From Candidatus Falkowbacteria bacterium RIFOXYD12_FULL_34_57 (GTDB lineage: Bacteria; Patescibacteriota; Patescibacteriia; Patescibacteriales; UBA12075), in NCBI GenBank assembly GCA_001780285.1, contig MFGN01000001.1, forward strand, positions 22 through 64,021: 64,000 nucleotides of DNA, in the 5' to 3' direction. The notes below the pieces were generated by a model, which saw nothing but the letters and a program-made list of their open reading frames with translations, ran no database searches and was not told where the DNA came from. Numbering within the stretch: the first letter of the stretch is position 1; every line of letters starts with the position of its first letter. The translations under genes were made by a program, and so were the position numbers. This document shows positions 158-61,873 of the stretch, in pieces.

Positions 158-1174
158 ATGGCAAAAAAAATTAAGGCTGGAATTATAGGATTCGGAAATG
201 TTGGTCAAGCTCTTGAAAAACAATTATCTAAAGATCAAGCTTGGAATGTTAAATTTGTAAGTAACAGTAAACATGTTTACAACAACACCAAACAATGTAT
301 ACAATTCATTGATGAAGTCTCTAATTATTTGAAATACTTTAAAGACCTTGATATTGTTTTTCTATGTATTCCCAGTAACACCCCTAAGATTGCCCATAAC
401 TATATATGGCAACTAATACATCAAAATGTTAAAGTTGTTATTTGTGAAAAGGGGGCTATTTCTAGTGGATACAACATTCTTATGTGGGGAGGAGTGGGTT
501 ACAATGCTACGGTTGGCGGCGGAACTATGATGTTAGATGAATTAAAAAACAGAATTAACCTAAATAATTTCAGTAATATTTACTTGGTAATCAATGGTAC
601 CATCAATTTCATCTTAGATGAAATGACGAAAAGAGAACAAAGTTTAGATACTATTATTAAAAAAGTGCAAGCTGCCGGATATTGTGAACCGGGTCAAAAC
701 AATATATTGGATATTATCAATCAGGAAATTATTGAAGATGTCGGCAAAAAAATATCCATTCTTTTAAGAGTAATTTTCAAAAGTCACCTTGATCTAAATT
801 CAGATTCTAATCATTTTCATAAAATTTTAAAAAGTGATTTAAAGAAAATCAGAAAAGAAGCTCGTGATAAAAGATATGTGGTAATATTTCAAAATCCCAA
901 AAATCCGGGAAAATATAATTTAAGTAAAAACGACATCATTACAATCAACTCTATTAATGATATTAATAAAAAAACTCAAATCAGTGCCGGGTTTATGCAT
1001 TTAAACCACGATTCTTGCCTTGGAAAACTCATCATACCAGGAGTAAACAATGCCTTCTGGATTGAAGGAGAAAAGGATATATTCCCCTCCCCTTGTGGTG
1101 GTCCGGGAGCAGGTCCGGAAGCTACAGCCCAAACCATGATCAAAGACGCTAAAAGATTATTGAATATAAAATAA
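158..1174 (+). CDS. homoserine dehydrogenase-family NAD(P)-binding oxidoreductase (no ACT domain)
   Basis: N-terminal GxGxxG (IIGFGNVG). The motifs ATVGGGTMM, INGTINFILDEM, AAGYCEP and a C-terminal GPGAGPEATA resemble the homoserine dehydrogenase catalytic domain. A good SD is present. Confidence 0.55.
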   Translation: MAKKIKAGIIGFGNVGQALEKQLSKDQAWNVKFVSNSKHVYNNTKQCIQFIDEVSNYLKYFKDLDIVFLCIPSNTPKIAHNYIWQLIHQNVKVVICEKGAISSGYNILMWGGVGYNATVGGGTMMLDELKNRINLNNFSNIYLVINGTINFILDEMTKREQSLDTIIKKVQAAGYCEPGQNNILDIINQEIIEDVGKKISILLRVIFKSHLDLNSDSNHFHKILKSDLKKIRKEARDKRYVVIFQNPKNPGKYNLSKNDIITINSINDINKKTQISAGFMHLNHDSCLGKLIIPGVNNAFWIEGEKDIFPSPCGGPGAGPEATAQTMIKDAKRLLNIK

Positions 1175-1182
1175 AATTTTCT

Positions 1183-1263
1183 GTCATTCTGAACGCAGTG
1201 AAGAGTCCCGTGATACAACAAAAACAAGATTCTTCACTTCGCCATCATTATACTCAAAATGAC
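1183..1263. repeat. GTCATTCTGA...GAATGAC hairpin repeat, copy 1 (right arm degenerate)
   Basis: The sequence gtcattctgaacgcagtgaagagtc...gattcttcacttcgcc...ctcaaaatgac aligns with the copies at 4026 and 4532. It lies between convergent genes. Confidence 0.75.
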
Positions 1264-1282
1264 ATACTATAAACACACAAAA

Positions 1283-2925: not shown

Positions 2926-4008
2926 TTACAATCCTAACTCCTCAATTAATTTCTTCTGCTTTCTGGTTATCCTACTTGGAATATTTACCCTTATCTCCAC
3001 CAAGTGATCTCCCCGCCCCCTACCCTGAAGGACATTTATTCCTTTATTTCTTAATTTAAATATGGTGCCAGACTGGGTTCCAGCCGGAATTTTTAAACTT
3101 ACCACTCCCTCAACTGTATCTATATCTATTTTATCACCCAATACTGCTTGTGTGAAGCTTATATTTTCCACGGAATGAATATCATAACCATCTCGCTCAA
3201 ATCGAGGATCGTCTTTTATATTCATTTTAATATATAAATCTCCTGCTGCCGCCCCCCTTTCTCCCGCCTCTCCTTGTCCTACCAGACGAATTGATTCCCC
3301 ATCATTAATTCCTGCCGGAATTTTTACTTGCAGTCTTACAGTATCCATATTAACACCCCTGCCGGAACACTGAGTACATTTCTTTTCATAAGACCTTCCT
3401 TCTCCGCCACATTGATCACAAGCAGACTGCACCTGCATATTACCAAGTATTGTTCTCTGAACTCGAGTTACCTTGCCGGTACCCCTGCAATTGCTACATG
3501 TAATAATTTTACTTCCCGGCTCGGCTAAATTTCCGTTGCAATGTGAACATTTTACTTTTTTATGCAAGCTTATTTCTTTTTCTGCTCCAAAAACAGCTTC
3601 TTTAAAATCAATAGTAAGAATTGTTTGAATATCATTACCGCGCCTTGCTCTTGGGCCATTTTCGCTTCTTGAACCGCCAAAACCGAACATATCTCCAATA
3701 CCGCCGAATATATCCCCCAAATCATCCATATCTACATGTATCCCGCCCTGAGAAAAACCGCCGAATCCCCCGCCGCTAAAACCGCCGGCCATGCCATTCG
3801 TAAAGTCGGAGCCAAACTGATCGTATTGCGCGCGTTTCTGTTCATTTCCTAAAACTTGATAAGCCTCATTAACCTCTTTAAATTTAGCTTCATCACCAGT
3901 AACTTTATCCGGATGATAAACATGCGCCTTCTTGCGGAAAGCTTTTTTTATTTCTTCCTGGCTGGCGTTCTTATTCACACCAAGAATATTGTAATAATCT
4001 TTAGACAT
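2926..4008 (-). CDS. dnaJ: molecular chaperone DnaJ (Hsp40, type I)
   Basis: J domain with HPD (YHPDK), a G/F-rich linker, four CxxCxGxG zinc-finger repeats and the C-terminal substrate-binding domains. Confidence 0.95.
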   Translation of the reverse strand: MSKDYYNILGVNKNASQEEIKKAFRKKAHVYHPDKVTGDEAKFKEVNEAYQVLGNEQKRAQYDQFGSDFTNGMAGGFSGGGFGGFSQGGIHVDMDDLGDIFGGIGDMFGFGGSRSENGPRARRGNDIQTILTIDFKEAVFGAEKEISLHKKVKCSHCNGNLAEPGSKIITCSNCRGTGKVTRVQRTILGNMQVQSACDQCGGEGRSYEKKCTQCSGRGVNMDTVRLQVKIPAGINDGESIRLVGQGEAGERGAAAGDLYIKMNIKDDPRFERDGYDIHSVENISFTQAVLGDKIDIDTVEGVVSLKIPAGTQSGTIFKLRNKGINVLQGRGRGDHLVEIRVNIPSRITRKQKKLIEELGL

Positions 4009-4025
4009 TTATTATCATTTCAGAT

Positions 4026-4123
4026 GTCATTCTGAATATAGCGAAGTGGGGTGAAGAATCTCATTAGTAACAGTAAAATCTAAATTCACGGGATTCTTCG
4101 TCGCTTTTGCTCCTCAGAATGAC
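4026..4123. repeat. GTCATTCTGA...TCAGAATGAC hairpin repeat, copy 2
   Basis: The 10-bp termini and the inner GAAGAATC/GATTCTTC arms are both complementary. It lies between the dnaJ start and the DUF3467 stop. Confidence 0.8.
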
Positions 4124-4129
4124 AAAATA

Positions 4130-4531: not shown

Positions 4532-4618
4532 GTCATTCTGAACGAAGTGAAGAATCTCGTAAATAACGGTAGTCATAATTCAACGAGATTCTTCGTCGCT
4601 ATCGCTTCTCAGAATGAC
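4532..4618. repeat. GTCATTCTGA...TCAGAATGAC hairpin repeat, copy 3 (best preserved)
   Basis: The left arm gtcattctgaacgaagtgaagaatctcg pairs with the right arm cgagattcttcgtcgctatcgcttctcagaatgac. It lies between the dnaK stop and the DUF3467 gene. Confidence 0.85.
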
Positions 4619-4630
4619 ATTATGGTTGAT

Positions 4631-6556
4631 TTATTTTTTATCGTCCTTTTTTTCTTCAAACTCTGCATCAACGGTTCCATCTTTTTTTTCTTTTTTGGCT
4701 TCACTATTTGCAGCCTGATCTGCCCCAGGTTCTCCGGCTTGTGATCCCGCCTGTGCTTGCTGCTGATACATAGCCGTACCAATCTTCTGCGCGATCTCGT
4801 TCATAGCCTCCATCTTAGCCTTGATATCTTCGGTGTTGCCGGAATCTTTTATCTTCTTTAAATCTTCTAATTTTTCTTCCAACTCTTTTTTATCTTCTGT
4901 CTTCATTTTATCTCCCGATTCTTTTATTAATTTTTCTGTGGTAAAGATAACGGTATCGGCCTGATTTTTAATTTCTATTCCCTCTTTCTTCTTTTTATCT
5001 TCGTCAGCGTGCATTTCCGCATCTTTTTTCATTTTTTCCACCTCCGCCTCTGAAAGTCCGGAAGAAGCTGTAATTGTAATCTTTTGCTCTTTTCCCGATG
5101 CCATGTCCTTAGCGGAAACATTTAAAATACCGTTAGCATCAATATCAAACTTTACTTCAATTTGCGGAATACCTCTTGGTGCCGGTGGGAGTCCGTCAAG
5201 CATAAACCTTCCCAATGTTTTGTTATCCGCAGCCATAGATCTTTCACCTTGTAATACATGAATTTCTACTCCCGGCTGATTATCTGCTGCTGTAGAAAAT
5301 ATTTGGGTTTTAGAGGTTGGAATAGTGGTATTTCTTTCAATTAACGGAGTGGATACGCCGCCCAGTGTTTCTATTCCAAGCGTCAGCGGAGTTACATCAA
5401 GCAATAAAACATCCTTTACATCCCCCTGCAAGACACCCGCCTGGACCGCTGCTCCGTTCGCAACCACCTCATCAGGATTTACCCCTAAATGCGGTTCTTT
5501 ATTAAAAAATTCTTTTACTATTTTTTGAACCATGGGCATTCTGGTCATACCTCCAACTAAAATAACCTCTTCCAGATCACCAACAGAAAGCCCTGCATCT
5601 TTTAGGGCAGCACGACACGGAGTTAATGTTTTTTCAACCAAATAACCAACCAATTCCTCAAGTTTTGATCTGGTTAATTTTATCACTAAGTGTTTTGGTC
5701 CATTTTCATCAGTAGTTATAAAAGGTTGATTAATTTCTGTTTCTCCGGATGTGGATAGTTCAATTTTGGCTTTTTCGGCTGCTTCTTTTATTCTTTGCAA
5801 AGCCAGGGAGTCTTTAGACAAATCAATCCCTTGATCTTTCTTGAATTCATCAATAATCCATTTAATAATCACTTGATCAAAATCTTCACCGCCCAAATGA
5901 GTATCTCCATTTGTTGATTTTACCTCTACTGTATCTTCTGAAACATCTAAAATTGACACATCAAAAGTTCCGCCGCCAAGATCATAAACTGCAATTTGCT
6001 GGCCCTTCTTTTTTTCAAAACCATAAGCAAGCGCTGCAGCAGTCGGTTCATTGATAATTCTCTTTACATCAAGTCCGGCAATCTTACCGGCATCTTTGGT
6101 TGCCTGACGCTGAGCATCATTAAAATAAGCCGGAACGGTAATTACTGCTTCTGTTATTTTTTCTCCAATCTTTGCTTCAGCATCTGCTTTTAATTTAGAG
6201 AGTATCATAGCCGAAACCTCTTGCGGACTATACTCCTTATCATTCATTTTTACCCCCACACTATCACCGATCTTCACAATGTCAAAGGGAACTGTTTTTA
6301 TATCCCCCTGAACTTCCGCATCATCATATTTTCTCCCAATTAGACGCTTTACGGCAAAAACCGTATTCTTTGGATTGGTCACCGCCTGTCTTTTTGCGGC
6401 TTGACCAACTAATCTTTCACCACTTTTAGAAATGGCTACAACAGAAGGAGTTGTTCTGTTTCCCTCTGCATTTTCTAATATTTTTGGCTGACCACCCTCA
6501 ATAATCGCCATAGCGCAATTTGTGGTTCCCAAATCTATTCCTAATATTTTTCCCAT
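4631..6556 (-). CDS. dnaK: molecular chaperone DnaK (Hsp70)
   Basis: Full-length Hsp70 with [17 protein letters not shown] and [11 protein letters not shown] signatures and an acidic/Lys-rich tail. Confidence 0.98.
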
Positions 6557-20202: not shown

Positions 20203-21168
20203 CTAAGCATTGTTTCTTGTAACTTTTTCCCAAATAACAAGTATTGGGCTAGCTAAAAATATTGAAGAATAAGTACCAATAAATATACCAATTGATAAGG
20301 CTAGCACAAAATCTTTAATTGAATCGCCTCCGAAGAAAAAAATTGCCAATAAAACCAAAATGGTAGTAAAAGATGTATTAATCGAACGGGTAATAGTGTC
20401 ATTAACACTGGTGTTGATTGTTTCCTCAAAGTTATCGTCGCTCTTAGGTAAATTTTCTCGCACCCTATCAAACACCACAATAGTATCATTTACCGAATAC
20501 CCAAGTACGGTAAGAATAGCGGCTACAAAAGGAGCATTAACTTCTATTCCATAAAATCTTCCTAAAACAGCAAAGGCCCCAACAACAATAATCACATCGT
20601 GAAACAGGGCAATAATAGCCGAAATCCCATATTTCCATGAAGCAACCGGCCTAGAAACCTTTCTAAAAGCCCAAGCAATATACAACACAATAACAATCAA
20701 AACTATCACAATCGCTGTTATTGACTTTCTTCTTAATTCTTGTCCAATGGTTGGTCCGACAGCATCATAACGAAGCTCTTCTACATTAGAAGCATCGATT
20801 TCTTTGGTATTCAAGAAGGCCTTCTGATCTGCCTCGCCTTCTGTATCTACTAATCCTCTATCTACTAATCCTCGTAATCTTTTTAATACTTCCTGGTGCT
20901 TATCTTCACTGATATTTTGAAAGCGTAAAATAGTTCCCTGATCACCGACATTTTGTGTAATCAAACTTCCCAAATCAAGATCTTCTACTGCTTTTTGCAC
21001 ATCATTAATGGCTGGTCGTTCATTTTTAAACCGAACCTCCAAAAGACTTCCTCCGGTAAAATCAATACCAAATTTAAGCCCCCATATAAACAAGGCTATT
21101 ATTGAAAGTGCCACTAAAATTGTTGATATCGTAATCCATATCCCTCTTTTTTGTATTATTTGATACAT
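20203..21168 (-). CDS. secF: protein translocase subunit SecF
   Basis: Motifs GIDFTGGSL and VGPTIGQELR, six TM segments, and YSVNDTIVVFDRVREN. Confidence 0.92.
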   Translation of the reverse strand: MYQIIQKRGIWITISTILVALSIIALFIWGLKFGIDFTGGSLLEVRFKNERPAINDVQKAVEDLDLGSLITQNVGDQGTILRFQNISEDKHQEVLKRLRGLVDRGLVDTEGEADQKAFLNTKEIDASNVEELRYDAVGPTIGQELRRKSITAIVIVLIVIVLYIAWAFRKVSRPVASWKYGISAIIALFHDVIIVVGAFAVLGRFYGIEVNAPFVAAILTVLGYSVNDTIVVFDRVRENLPKSDDNFEETINTSVNDTITRSINTSFTTILVLLAIFFFGGDSIKDFVLALSIGIFIGTYSSIFLASPILVIWEKVTRNNA

Positions 21169-21185
21169 AGTATTTTAAACTAAGA

Positions 21186-21209
21186 GCTAAAAGCTAAAAG
21201 CTAAAAGCT
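21186..21209. repeat. tandem heptamer (GCTAAAA)x3 + GCT in the secF leader
   Basis: Three perfect units lie 18 nt upstream of the secF ATG. The same unit recurs at 61841-61873. Confidence 0.9.
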
Positions 21210-30025: not shown

Positions 30026-30080
30026 AAACTTCTCATAACTCGTAACGCATAGCTCATAACAAGCACTTTTGTTATTATGG

Positions 30081-30163
30081 GTATCAACGAAAAATCTTAT
30101 TAAAACGCGCTAACTAATCCTAATTTCAAGAGAGTCTTCGTCTTTTTCGCTCCCCAGAATAAC
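30081..30163. repeat. degenerate copy of the GTCATTCTGA hairpin repeat (right arm recognisable)
   Basis: gagtcttcgtctttttcgctccccagaataac aligns with the right arm of copy 2. The left arm has decayed. Confidence 0.5.
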
Positions 30164-30194
30164 ATCAGAGAGTAATACGCAACGAATAAAATAC

Positions 30195-49768: not shown

Positions 49769-49954
49769 CCCCCAACACTCCCCAATATTTTTAATAATTT
49801 ATTTTTATTAAATTTACTCGCTTGAAGCGGAGTAAAAATTCAAATAAACTATTATTATCATCGAGCAAACATAAATCATAACAACAAATAATTTACTTTG
49901 GGGGAGCTGAGCTTAAATTTAGTAAAAATAAATTATTAAAAATAATAACCACCG

Positions 49955-56415: not shown

Positions 56416-56460
56416 ATAAACATTTAATCATTTAAACATGTAAGCAAAAATTTATCTCTT

Positions 56461-56487
56461 GTCATTCTGAACTTGATTCAGAATGAC
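56461..56487. repeat. minimal copy of the hairpin repeat (GTCATTCTGAA-CTTGA-TTCAGAATGAC)
   Basis: Perfect 11-bp stem using the same termini as copies 1-3. It lies between the epimerase start and the NUDIX stop. Confidence 0.8.
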
Positions 56488-56513
56488 ACAGGTGGAAAAT
56501 ATTTTCAAACCAC

Positions 56514-59585: not shown

Positions 59586-61829
59586 CTATTTCAAACTTTC
59601 AATAAAACTATTTGCGCTTGCTTCAATGCTGGGGTCAACTTTTATAGCCCTGCCCACAGCATCAATAGCCTTTTCCTTCTCTCCTTGTTCTGCGTAAAGT
59701 TTTGCCAAATTTATTAAATGTTTTACTTCTTGCGGTTCTTGAACAGATAATTGTTCATAAAGGCCGGTAACCCTCACCCAGTCTTCCGCGTCAACATAAT
59801 GATTAATAAGTTCTTTTATGTATCCTGCCGGAGTCAAAAGACCATACCCGCCCAAATCTATGCATTTATCTATTTCCTTATAAGCTTCTTCGGTCTGGCC
59901 GTAATGCAAAAGAGTTTTTCCGAGATGACAGAAACTATCATAATATTCATCGTTTAAACTACTGGCATAGCGCAGAGTCTCAATCGCTTTATCCGGTTCA
60001 TTGCGGGTAATGTAAATTTGTGCTTTCTGAAAATAAACCGGAGATCTGCCGGGACTAGCTTCTATGGACCTATTAATAGCTTCAAGCGCCCTATCTGAAT
60101 AATACATAAATTTTTCCTGATTATTCTGATAATATACAGAAGCGGTGTTTAACATTTGAGCAAGCATCATCTGATTCAAACTGTCTCCCTTGTTATAATC
60201 TACATTTTTCTCAGCCAAATCAATCAAATAATCAATATCCTGTTCAACTGTATCCTTATTTAATTGCTTCAGGGCATTTGGATTGGTGGCAAAAATACGC
60301 AAAAGGCTAGTACGGCTATCGCGGTCTAGGACGGTATTATAACTTAAAGCCTTTTTATATATTTCCAAAGTCTCCGGCACTCGACCAGCAGCATAAGCTC
60401 TCTGTCCGTCGATAGTTCCGTTTAACATTCTCCAGGGGCTTATGTTGTATTGATACATAATCATAAATAATAAAAATCCAGCAAAAACCAAAGTATAAAT
60501 TTCTTTATTTTCAAAATATCTGTCTTTAGTAAATTTATCAGATATCATTTTTCCTTTTTCCTGCAAACCCTCCAAAAAATTCTCCTCCCCTTCTTTGTGC
60601 ATCCAATATACATAACCAAAAACTACCATAATCAACATATAGGTTATAAAAGAATCAAAAACAGCCAAGTTTTGCACAAAATAAGCAATGATTAAACATG
60701 AAACCAACACGAAGTCATGGAGACCTATGTATTTCTTTCGATATCCATCTATTAAATAATAAGCGCTGGCTAAAAGTATAAAAAGATAAGTTGAGATTCC
60801 AAAAACTCCGGTAGTAGAGGCGATATCCACCACATTATTGTGCGCCCGATCAAAATATGTCTCACCCCTGGTTTGTAGATAAAAATCAGGAGTAAAATAT
60901 TTATCAAAAATAATCGCATAATTACCATGTCCTACGCCGATAATCGGATGAGCCTTAAAATCTTTAAGTCCGGCCTTCCATGATATTATCCTGGTTTGAA
61001 AAGTATTCTTTTGAAAATCTATACCCCGAATCGCTCGAAGTCCCGGGGTCCTGTCAAGTATCGGGCTGTCTTTGTGCGTAAAGAGCCATGAAATGATAAC
61101 TATGCCCAAAAAACAAATCGCAAGTGTTGCTATCTTTATCTTTTTATTCCTATTCAATACACCGTATAAAAACAATGCTGCCAAAATGCTCAATCCAAGA
61201 CCGACATGCGCGCCGCTAGTGCCAAGCTTATCAAAGTGAACAAAAAATAAGGGCAACGGAAGAAGATACAACCACTTTAACTCCTTAACTTTTTCCTTAA
61301 AAAATAACAATACACAAAAGTACATATTGAATATCAGATATCCGCTGACATAAGCCGAGTTGCCAATAGTACTATATCCTTTCTGATTCTCCCCTAATCC
61401 ATAAAAACTAATGAAAACTCCGCAGACCACCGATGCTATCAAAAGAATTTTCCAATCTTTCTGTTCGCGAAATACAGTAATTAAAATCAAATAAAATATA
61501 AAAAAGTGCAGGATATGAAAAGCGCCAAGCATTCTCTCTACATCTCCCCAAAAACTTAAATTAAAATCAACTCCGGTCACACAGGAAATAACCATTACCG
61601 CAAAAAAACTAATAAGTCCAAAAGTAATCCATGATTTTTTTGGGCGATACTCCGGATATTTCACTAAAAATGCTATCCAAAACACCAAAAGCACCTCCAT
61701 AATAATATTAAACGGTATTTGCTTTGATGTAATATAGGGAAACAAAAGACCTTTAAATACAAAGAATACGCAAATCAAAGAAAGATATATTCCTGATTTA
61801 AGAATGGTTAAATAAGTTTTTTGAGACAT
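59586..61829 (-). CDS. O-antigen-ligase-like polytopic membrane protein with C-terminal TPR repeats
   Basis: About 12 TM segments with a large loop, as in the Wzy_C/O-antigen ligase family, followed by about 300 aa of TPR-like helical repeats. Confidence 0.6.
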   Translation of the reverse strand: MSQKTYLTILKSGIYLSLICVFFVFKGLLFPYITSKQIPFNIIMEVLLVFWIAFLVKYPEYRPKKSWITFGLISFFAVMVISCVTGVDFNLSFWGDVERMLGAFHILHFFIFYLILITVFREQKDWKILLIASVVCGVFISFYGLGENQKGYSTIGNSAYVSGYLIFNMYFCVLLFFKEKVKELKWLYLLPLPLFFVHFDKLGTSGAHVGLGLSILAALFLYGVLNRNKKIKIATLAICFLGIVIISWLFTHKDSPILDRTPGLRAIRGIDFQKNTFQTRIISWKAGLKDFKAHPIIGVGHGNYAIIFDKYFTPDFYLQTRGETYFDRAHNNVVDIASTTGVFGISTYLFILLASAYYLIDGYRKKYIGLHDFVLVSCLIIAYFVQNLAVFDSFITYMLIMVVFGYVYWMHKEGEENFLEGLQEKGKMISDKFTKDRYFENKEIYTLVFAGFLLFMIMYQYNISPWRMLNGTIDGQRAYAAGRVPETLEIYKKALSYNTVLDRDSRTSLLRIFATNPNALKQLNKDTVEQDIDYLIDLAEKNVDYNKGDSLNQMMLAQMLNTASVYYQNNQEKFMYYSDRALEAINRSIEASPGRSPVYFQKAQIYITRNEPDKAIETLRYASSLNDEYYDSFCHLGKTLLHYGQTEEAYKEIDKCIDLGGYGLLTPAGYIKELINHYVDAEDWVRVTGLYEQLSVQEPQEVKHLINLAKLYAEQGEKEKAIDAVGRAIKVDPSIEASANSFIESLK

Positions 61830-61840
61830 AATAATGTAAA

Positions 61841-61873
61841 CTAAAAGCTAAAAGCTAAAAGCTAAAAGCTAAT
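61841..61873. repeat. tandem GCTAAA(A) units x4-5 in the gene leader
   Basis: ACTAAAA GCTAAAA GCTAAA GCTAAAA GCTAATG, about 11 nt upstream of the start codon. The unit is the same as at 21186-21209. Confidence 0.9.

Follow-up and report, generated by a model that had tools for sequence, protein, structure and literature searches.

The systems closest to the repeats analysed here have been described twice, once as a repeat architecture and once together with an enzyme. The CGTC-tagged REPs of Di Nocera, De Gregorio and Rocco (BMC Genomics 2013; PMC3733652), which include dRS3 of Neisseria and RPE-4 and RPE-6 of Rickettsia, carry the tag CGTC, often TGTC, have A-T at stem positions one and two and short tails, and occur mostly as head-to-head dimers, frequently as heterodimers; they were reported from five phyla, seemingly without a transposase of their own and not flanking Y1 transposase genes. 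Chenal et al. (Nat Commun 2025; PMC11893778) described the Ssn family of site-specific ssDNA nucleases together with flanking Ssn-related motifs (SRM). In Neisseria the motif, termed NTS, is an oriented dRS3 (CGTCATTCCCGCGMAVGCGGGAATCYRG) that flanks ssnA, the gene for a 94-aa single-domain GIY-YIG protein; binding of the sense repeat, and cleavage of ssDNA just upstream of it, were found for SsnA and three homologues, which are inactive on dsDNA, on RNA and on the reverse strand (PMC11893778). Activity was demonstrated for Neisseria and Wolbachia homologues, Ssn reduces transformation of N. meningitidis by NTS-bearing DNA, SRM lie near 71% of Ssn homologues, and an IS-like origin of the units was put forward as a hypothesis only (PMC11893778). 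The enzyme of Chenal et al. fills the gap left by the missing enzyme of the CGTC-tagged REPs.

Our subject is a hairpin repeat family in a stretch of 64,000 nucleotides (the window throughout), nearly all of a metagenome contig of ~66 kb; synteny and a DnaK identity of 71% with a Patescibacteria MAG are no more than suggestive of its lineage. The original prediction proposed a dispersed, extragenic, REP/MITE-like repeat family, which our results support, and pointed to no formal description of it, wrongly in view of the two papers above (PMC3733652, PMC11893778). Taken together, the comparisons reported below indicate that the window elements are very probably DNA-level hairpin repeats of the SRM / CGTC-tagged-REP superfamily, present here as gene-less derivatives of Ssn-type units.

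Copies in the window

The window contains three full elements (1183-1263, 4026-4123 and 4532-4618), one mini-palindrome (56461-56487) and one decayed copy (30072-30164). All five copies originally listed are present, although the decayed one, which had been placed at 30081-30163, has its true start at about 30072. The individual features, with scores from a covariance model (R1) trained solely on modules from unrelated genomes and then run on the window, are as follows.

1181..1211, + strand: short arm of doublet 1, GTCATTCTGAACGCAGTGAAGAGTC, with one G·T in the stem; R1 37 bits
1224..1264, - strand: degenerate long arm of doublet 1, GTCATTTTGAG...GAAGAATC; R1 13 bits, E 0.36
4024..4064, + strand (sense): arm of doublet 2 with a 17-nt middle insert (ATATAGCGAAGTGGGGT); R1 29 bits; matched by the strict detector
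4088..4125, - strand (sense): long arm of doublet 2, GTCATTCTGAG-GAGCAAAAGCGAC-GAAGAATCCCG; R1 30 bits
4530..4560, + strand (sense): short arm of doublet 3, TGTC-ATTCT-GA-AC-GAA-GT-GA-AGAAT-CTC; R1 48 bits, E 5e-10
4561..4582, no strand: apical spacer of doublet 3, where the ssn gene sits in full units; ssn remnant not detectable
4583..4620, - strand (sense): long arm of doublet 3, GTCATTCTGAG-AAGCGATAGCGAC-GAAGAATCTCG; R1 31 bits
30072..30164, no strand: decayed doublet, one arm 80% identical to those of doublets 2 and 3; R1 7.8 bits for the better arm
56460..56488, no strand: mini copy, TGTCATTCTGAA-CTTGA-TTCAGAATGACA; R1 only 11.7 bits

R1 recovered all six arms of the three full elements, five of them at 29-48 bits (E 3e-5 to 5e-10) and the degenerate sixth at the 13 bits listed; the scores of the mini and the decayed copy are both marginal, and no further convincing match was found in the window. 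A covariance-model scan, proposed at the outset as a check, recovers the three full elements from foreign copies. With one mismatch or none, the motif GTCATTCTGA is found at 11 places in the window where 2.8 would be expected, a count reached in none of 100 shuffles, and the folds of the three full copies and the mini copy are more stable than those of shuffled sequences on either strand (z -4.1 to -6.3). The decayed copy reads TGTTATTATGGG...CCCAGAATAACA, and its outer stem is preserved by changes on both sides, from GTCAT/ATGAC to GTTAT/ATAAC. The apical region, described earlier as variable over 20-35 nt, is not wholly so, since the string TAAWTTCA beside one arm is common to three copies. 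The mini copy is a fully Watson-Crick 'ACTTG-loop' variant of the module, and the same variant flanks ssn at four loci fetched from elsewhere (L286, L321, L325 and L333). In doublet 3, a 35-nt stretch of the long arm is identical in a related contig (L248), where its orientation relative to dnaK is the opposite one. Target-site duplications, sought in the flanks of the four intact copies, were not found, and none is visible at any copy.

As claimed, all copies are intergenic. They lie in a region of housekeeping genes (hom / htrA-like, dnaJ, DUF3467, dnaK, secA, a NUDIX gene and an epimerase gene), each of the five with a minus-strand stop codon 7-155 nt upstream; the long arm of doublet 2 starts 7 nt past the stop of the DUF3467 gene, and that of doublet 3 starts 13 nt past the dnaK stop codon. 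The two ORFs attributed to the repeats (976..1227 and 4547..4744) do exist as mechanical ORFs, and the peptide RFFVAIASQNDI had been given correctly; the gene caller called neither of them on the source contig.

Placement past stop codons and stable predicted hairpins (-20 to -35 kcal/mol) both speak for an RNA element, i.e. a transcript hairpin serving as terminator, as a block to 3' exonucleases that would stabilise mRNA, or as a processing site in the dnaK-DUF3467-dnaJ operon. In related contigs, that DUF3467-dnaJ spacer is occupied by long hairpins of other, unrelated kinds, doublets elsewhere flank highly expressed genes (e.g. groEL and a capsid gene), and REPs can stabilise mRNA in E. 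coli, all of which count on the same side. Nevertheless, we regard such an element as a highly unlikely explanation. The window elements have no T-run, a terminator scan reports no element, and the canonical terminator of the htrA-like gene lies at 1279-1306, separate from doublet 1, whose arm at 1224..1264 is beyond that terminator. Nor did the Rfam search suggested originally match any family: Rfam 15 at the gathering threshold gave no hit in the window and only tRNAs in 18 module-rich loci, and at an E-value threshold the best hit on the elements themselves had an E of 0.054. Further points against it arise from the structure and arrangement of the module, below. A separate candidate, a hammerhead-like reading of CUGA...GAA, was rejected, since its core positions misfit on direct reading and no Rfam match was obtained.

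The self-folding module and its distribution

The conserved unit is a single oriented module of ~28 nt, not a long two-helix hairpin, and full elements are two such modules facing each other. Its consensus is T-GTC-ATYCT-GA-RC-GNA-GY-GA-AGRAT-C-T-C (ATTCT/AGAAT in the window form), in which an unpaired TGTC tag is followed by a 21-nt hairpin, consisting of a 5-bp stem, tandem G·A/A·G, two pairs and a GNA triloop, and by a C-T-C tail. The bounds are sharp, conservation ending abruptly outside T-GTC...ATC-T-C, and the base preceding GTC is T in 81% of modules. Counted through, the stem has nine positions, two of them G·A mismatches; the loop is of 3 nt (GNA, its N unconstrained) in about half of 509 modules, and longer middle inserts are hairpins of short helices with tandem GA between the helices. 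Very stable DNA mini-hairpins, e.g. d(GCGNAGC), are typified by sheared G·A pairs in tandem and by GNA triloops closed by C-G. Partly on such general grounds, the combination of GNA or GNNA loops (including GNYA) with tandem G·A suits DNA mini-hairpins better than RNA tetraloops, which argues against a function in the transcript.

Pairing within the module was tested on an alignment of 145 sequences that was anchored only on GTC and the loop core and then compared with the hairpin. Paired combinations fill 97.9% of cells and two-sided changes occur at six of seven pairs, values reached in 0 of 500 shuffles, the test being limited to free positions and non-pattern variants because part of the set had been chosen by scan patterns. 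The pair left free by the scan pattern is C-G in 81 cases, T-A in 66 and mixed in 4, and the loop-closing pair is G-C in 115, A-T in 29 and mixed in 7; seven or more other variants of the stem are compensatory as well, and the first two stem pairs are nearly fixed as A-U (columns 6-26, 140/145) and U-A (columns 7-25, 138/145). The compensatory changes for which the original prediction proposed to look are accordingly strong, but they sit inside each arm. Its two helices separated by an asymmetric bulge are one possible fold of a doublet, not the conserved unit, and in other genomes the two arms vary independently: among 103 doublets, they share a stem variant in 42 and differ in 61, close to independent assortment. 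An RNA hairpin spanning the element is poorly compatible with conserved pairing confined to the arm and with arms that are often mutually mismatched.

An exact-pattern scan in which two pairs were left free found the module in at least 120 genome contigs. The matches listed include Nitrospirota, Saccharibacteria, Gracilibacteria, Chloroflexota, Acidobacteriota, Bacteroidota, Planctomycetota, Verrucomicrobiota, Omnitrophota and Gemmatimonadota, as well as several Firmicutes families, four proteobacterial classes and others. A single-arm scan of viral contigs likewise returned at least 120 contigs, of 27-67% GC, and among the viral matches listed many are lone arms without a partner; many viral doublets combine unlike arms, e.g. 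ATTCT/AGAAT on one side and ATCCT/AGGAT on the other. In all, over 15 bacterial phyla, as well as viral contigs, carry the module in nearly the same form, and these scans bear out the statement that related strings abound in metagenome-assembled genomes. A generic RNA hairpin would need no such near-identity across phyla.

The arrangement of modules was surveyed with 509 strictly defined copies from 240 loci, which form 103 convergent doublets, 21 divergent pairs and 208 singles. Modules avoid ORFs: 31% lie inside mechanical ORFs, although ORFs cover 81% of bases, and the window copies are all intergenic. Single modules show no clear bias with respect to gene direction (38 sense, 28 antisense) and are thus not aligned with transcription, a further point against an RNA element. 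Given this orientation count, the missing T-run and the separate terminator at 1279-1306, the terminator, stabiliser or processing role originally suggested is unsupported as the primary function; the elements may have a side effect on mRNA. Strand bias of single modules is weak: the sense strand coincides with the C-rich one at 34 of 60 genome loci (not significant) and at 29 of 41 viral loci (p = 0.01), counts that were filtered because coding look-alikes in related phages inflate the unfiltered figure, 108 vs 56. There are genomes in which almost every intergenic space has a doublet.

Comparison of 78 related dnaK-DUF3467-dnaJ loci in search of empty sites showed spacers replaced wholesale, with no clean insertion boundaries; between L256 and L257, for instance, the entire spacer differs and no simple insertion can be recognised. 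A Pfam scan of ten ORFs from doublet-flanked loci gave mostly cellular genes (e.g. yidC, groEL and oxidoreductases), with one phage capsid and no transposase family, and the same scan of 97 module-adjacent ORFs gave, again, mostly ordinary cellular genes and no transposase family. All-against-all clustering for a recurrent neighbouring protein family returned only phage structural genes common to related viral contigs.

These results bear on the possibility that the elements are classical REPs or REPINs mobilised by RAYT, an IS200/IS605-type Y1 transposase. Such repeats share the organisation into singlets and inverted doublets, and the alternative 'hairpin' and 'clover' folds (PMC3116915). 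However, the tag here is TGTC rather than GTAG, no transposase was found among either the 97 or the ten ORFs, CGTC REPs have been reported not to flank Y1 transposase genes (PMC3733652), and classical REPs are lineage-specific whereas the module is found across bacteria. On the strength of the tag and of the absent Y1 transposase genes we set a RAYT-type REP aside, its probability being very slight indeed.

Association with GIY-YIG genes

The module is tied to Ssn-family genes in many phyla. Among the 97 module-adjacent ORFs, the Pfam scan identified one GIY-YIG ORF, and a tblastn search with it found four more in the fetched loci (~2.2 Mb); all five small GIY-YIG ORFs in these ~2.2 Mb lie between modules (L134, L149, L124, L286 and L218), their hosts being Cyclobacteriaceae, Gracilibacteria, Saccharibacteria, a relative of the window's lineage and Hymenobacter. 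The commonest layout is a sense module, 0-100 nt, a gene of ~95 aa from ATG to stop, 0-20 nt and an antisense module. For a blind test, eight homologues from Hymenobacter, Patescibacteria, Tissierellia, Deltaproteobacteria, Pseudomonadota and metagenomes were picked without regard to the repeat, solely on the length of the protein and of its contig. Modules were found near the start and/or stop in all eight, with R1 scores of up to 49 bits; six have them within ~25 nt of start or stop, and two (L325 and L333) within ~40-100 nt. The background, estimated from 308 kb of loci picked by an unrelated protein, is one R1 match of at least 30 bits per 44 kb. In total, sense module, gene and antisense module succeed one another at 13 fetched loci, including the eight repeat-blind ones.

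The proteins so placed are GIY-YIG by Pfam (E 1e-16 to 1e-19), and a profile built from them finds no fewer than 7,998 clusters, whose names read 'GIY-YIG nuclease family protein' or 'putative endonuclease'. Aligned by hhalign with the NTS-flanked ORF of N. gonorrhoeae, they gave 99.7% and an E of 1.9e-25 at 44% identity, and many Ssn proteins are 60-70% identical between phyla. In isolate genomes, the gene has repeats around it in S. meliloti, N. aromaticivorans, Planktothrix and Spirosoma, with lineage-specific stems; the sense-gene-antisense layout is clear in S. meliloti and N. aromaticivorans, and in N. gonorrhoeae both flanking repeats are in sense orientation. The window elements resemble the repeats of these gene-bearing units closely. 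In L329 and L331, the arm upstream of the gene is nearly matched by the long arms of the window, the resemblance being close for that of doublet 3, and in L134 only the covarying pair sets the downstream arm apart from the short arm of the window. A search of the 64-kb window itself found neither an ssn gene nor a remnant of one.

By analogy with these units, the sense strand of the module would, as ssDNA, be the recognition site of a cognate Ssn, a GIY-YIG protein of ~95 aa, which would cut a few nt 5' of the tag if it behaves as its Neisseria and Wolbachia homologues do. The full genetic unit consists of sense module, ssn gene and antisense module, and the three full elements of the window are the same convergent pair with only 20-35 nt between the modules, hence gene-less, MITE-like doublets. 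We infer that these elements are mobile: such doublets may arise from, or persist through, gene-bearing units, and those of the window could either depend on a putative ssn elsewhere in the genome or be relics, the cognate Ssn of this organism presumably recognising their modules. Either strand of the doublet carries a sense module towards its 5' end, so that predicted cuts would bracket the doublet on opposite strands, a geometry compatible with excision or copying. Locations just 3' of genes would represent tolerated insertion sites, any effect on mRNA being secondary; in keeping with a DNA-level role, SsnA does not bind RNA (PMC11893778), which again weighs against an RNA element. Several observations count against the Ssn reading: the window has no ssn gene or remnant, the module escapes the published SRM pattern, neither clean empty sites nor target-site duplications were found, spacers of relatives differ as a whole, and single modules have only a weak strand bias.

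How far such units spread by themselves is a further matter. It is possible, although we put this forward tentatively and as somewhat less than an even chance, that the tandem-G·A module and ssn form an actively spreading, horizontally transferred, selfish IS-like unit, with the GIY-YIG nuclease as its mobility enzyme and the gene-less doublets as its MITEs. This reading fits the near-identical modules in more than 15 phyla and in phage contigs, the identity of Ssn proteins between phyla, nested and tandem module arrays, the independent assortment of arms, and a deletion intermediate. The last is viral: the locus L323 is a doublet with an internally deleted ssn remnant in its apical region. 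A scan of viral contigs with the Ssn profile found three loci only.

The origin could also have run in reverse, such that the doublets are primary and self-maintaining, ssn is a homing parasite of their apical loops, and the window doublets never held a gene. In favour of this, ssn genes are far fewer than doublets and singles, recognition by Ssn could let a free-standing nuclease gene home to the module, insertion into REPs is known for IS110-family elements (PMC12288879), and the spacers of the window doublets are without an ssn remnant. Against this stand L323, in which the remnant shows that gene loss does produce doublets, and S. meliloti, in which a partial duplication has placed the 3' end of ssn and its repeat in tandem; moreover, the spread of the modules themselves would be left unexplained. 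We therefore consider a reverse origin unlikely, L323 favouring doublets as deletion products over the gene as a parasite of older doublets, and continue with the window elements as gene-less derivatives of Ssn-type units.

Comparison with described systems

The family is more general than the original prediction supposed, few non-coding strings in bacterial and metagenomic assemblies being as widespread as its module, and its recognition as an Ssn-type motif would allow annotators to mask the spurious ORFs that such repeats may generate. Ssn enzymes are under development as ssDNA tools, and the hairpin with tandem G·A and GNA triloop, a distinct ssDNA structure, may define a new class of Ssn specificity. 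The gene-less doublets, the deletion intermediate and the identity across phyla bear on the possible mobility of Ssn units. Searching the literature for the repeat strings themselves returned just primers and unrelated papers, and a search for follow-up work on the tandem-G·A variant found none in the collection covered.

More distant systems share single traits with the elements. With strict MITEs the window elements have inverted termini in common, but a target-site duplication is absent at the four intact copies. REP/REPIN-RAYT systems are similar in their short extragenic palindromes, present as singlets and inverted doublets, in the position of the enzyme gene between its own repeats and in recognition of the hairpin in ssDNA (PMC3116915, PMC2817692); they differ in tag and enzyme (GTAG and a Y1 HUH transposase, against TGTC and a GIY-YIG nuclease) and in that their repeats are lineage-specific with mainly vertical inheritance. 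On the protein side, the solved structures closest by sequence are stand-alone GIY-YIG proteins of UPF0213 / YhbQ type (1ZG2, E 7.5e-7; 1YWL, E 2.3e-4), structural-genomics entries with no assigned function and with low identity to the proteins found here.

Likeness to the CGTC-tagged REPs is much fuller, comprising the unpaired CGTC/TGTC tag, the stem of about nine positions beginning A-T, T-A, the short unpaired tail, the extragenic location, usually 3' of genes, and the prevalence of head-to-head dimers (103 convergent vs 21 divergent), of which 61 of 103 are heterodimers. The differences lie in the loop, of 3 nt in the module and 4-5 nt in those repeats, and in the stem, which has G·A pairs in the module and is 8-9 bp long in the others.

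With the SRM/Ssn system the module shares an oriented hairpin repeat of 20-50 nt and an unpaired (H)GTC tag, both of which the window module has, the termini GTCATTC...GAATC(Y) common to NTS and module, a hairpin of similar size (20 nt in NTS, 21 nt here), hundreds of extragenic copies, the repeat-ssn-repeat architecture, true of the module family although not of this window, and an adjacent single-domain GIY-YIG protein of ~94 aa homologous to Neisseria SsnA. It differs in its mid-stem tandem G·A and GNA triloop, where NTS has a continuous G+C Watson-Crick stem and a 4-nt loop, and in being nearly identical in over 15 phyla, lineages of the candidate phyla radiation among them, and in viral contigs. 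When the degenerate SRM pattern of Chenal et al. was applied, the Neisseria NTS used as control matched, but none of the 145 modules and no copy in the window did; since the pattern misses the tandem-G·A form, the published 71% and the per-genome SRM counts are probably underestimates. Both the repeat architecture (2013) and the enzyme system (2025) had thus been described, and the window elements belong there. What is new is the tandem-G·A TGTC form, its occurrence in more than 15 phyla and its escape from the published SRM pattern, and the evidence points to gene-less derivatives of such units as a further addition to what was described.

Spacers of the heat-shock gene cluster

In the window, one doublet (4026-4123), a pair of convergent hairpin modules, lies in the spacer between the DUF3467 gene and dnaJ, and another (4532-4618) lies 13 nt past the dnaK stop codon. 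The former spacer is also occupied in the relatives L247, L249, L252, L256 and L280, each of which carries a long hairpin downstream of its DUF3467 gene; these hairpins are made of short lineage-specific direct repeats (e.g. ATTCGCA or CCGAAT units). A doublet after dnaK is found at 280-372 of a related contig (L248, DUF3467 identity 77%), where one arm is identical to the window's long arm at 35 of 35 positions but stands on the opposite side of the element, its partner being a different variant of the ATGCT type.

The dnaK-DUF3467 spacer could also be compared between two near-identical contigs, L256 and L257, in which it is wholly different (~330 nt upstream of position 3001), an AT-rich repeat hairpin being present in one and, in the other, a doublet of ~190 nt that belongs to the GTCATTGCGA...TCGCAATGAC variant. 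No simple insertion boundary was apparent in the comparison of this spacer between the two contigs. The same heat-shock gene cluster is the site of an ssn insertion in L325 (Patescibacteria MAG GCA_028703545.1), in which an ssn gene, encoding a single-domain GIY-YIG protein homologous to Neisseria SsnA, is inserted together with its flanking modules between hsp20 and dnaK.

Arrays, a remnant and a possible duplication around ssn

Tandem arrays of modules and doublets adjoin ssn genes at L332:730-1660 and at L339:1290-1525, the latter with a 38-nt unit repeated four times in direct orientation. At L323:1370-1670 we identified a doublet with perfectly complementary arms of ~53 nt, whose apical region codes for what is left of an ssn gene after an internal deletion (MPYYV...REKQLKGWRRAKKIKLTEALNPKWSDL). 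S. meliloti (L343, CP090106.1) has, besides the intact gene and ~200 nt upstream of it, a second, partial ssn 3' end accompanied by its antisense repeat, an arrangement that suggests a tandem partial duplication. In a further ssn locus, L327, the public record contains a masked run of N (~790-980) exactly at the site expected for the upstream module, of which only the 3' end can be read (GAAGGATC).

Other elements in the window

Besides the modules, the following features were noted:

1279-1306, bidirectional intrinsic terminator of the canonical type, in the spacer where the hom-like and htrA-like genes converge, immediately adjoining the doublet at 1183-1263, which lies outside it
21156-21209 and 61817-61870, two stretches of repeated AAAAGCT heptamers, ~89% identical across 54 nt, each immediately adjoining the start codon of a minus-strand gene (starts 21168 and 61829)
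49786-49816 and 49914-49944, AT-rich inverted repeat with 31-nt arms, 97% complementary and 97 nt apart, in the spacer separating two minus-strand genes

Weak strand bias of single modules

Among the single modules of comparison loci L001-L242, the sense strand of the module was more often the C-rich strand of its locus, with counts after filtering of 34 on the C-rich strand vs 26 on the other in genome loci, and of 29 vs 12 in viral loci. This excess, a weak effect, would fit avoidance of cutting by Ssn, the ssDNA nuclease family, on the exposed lagging-strand template.
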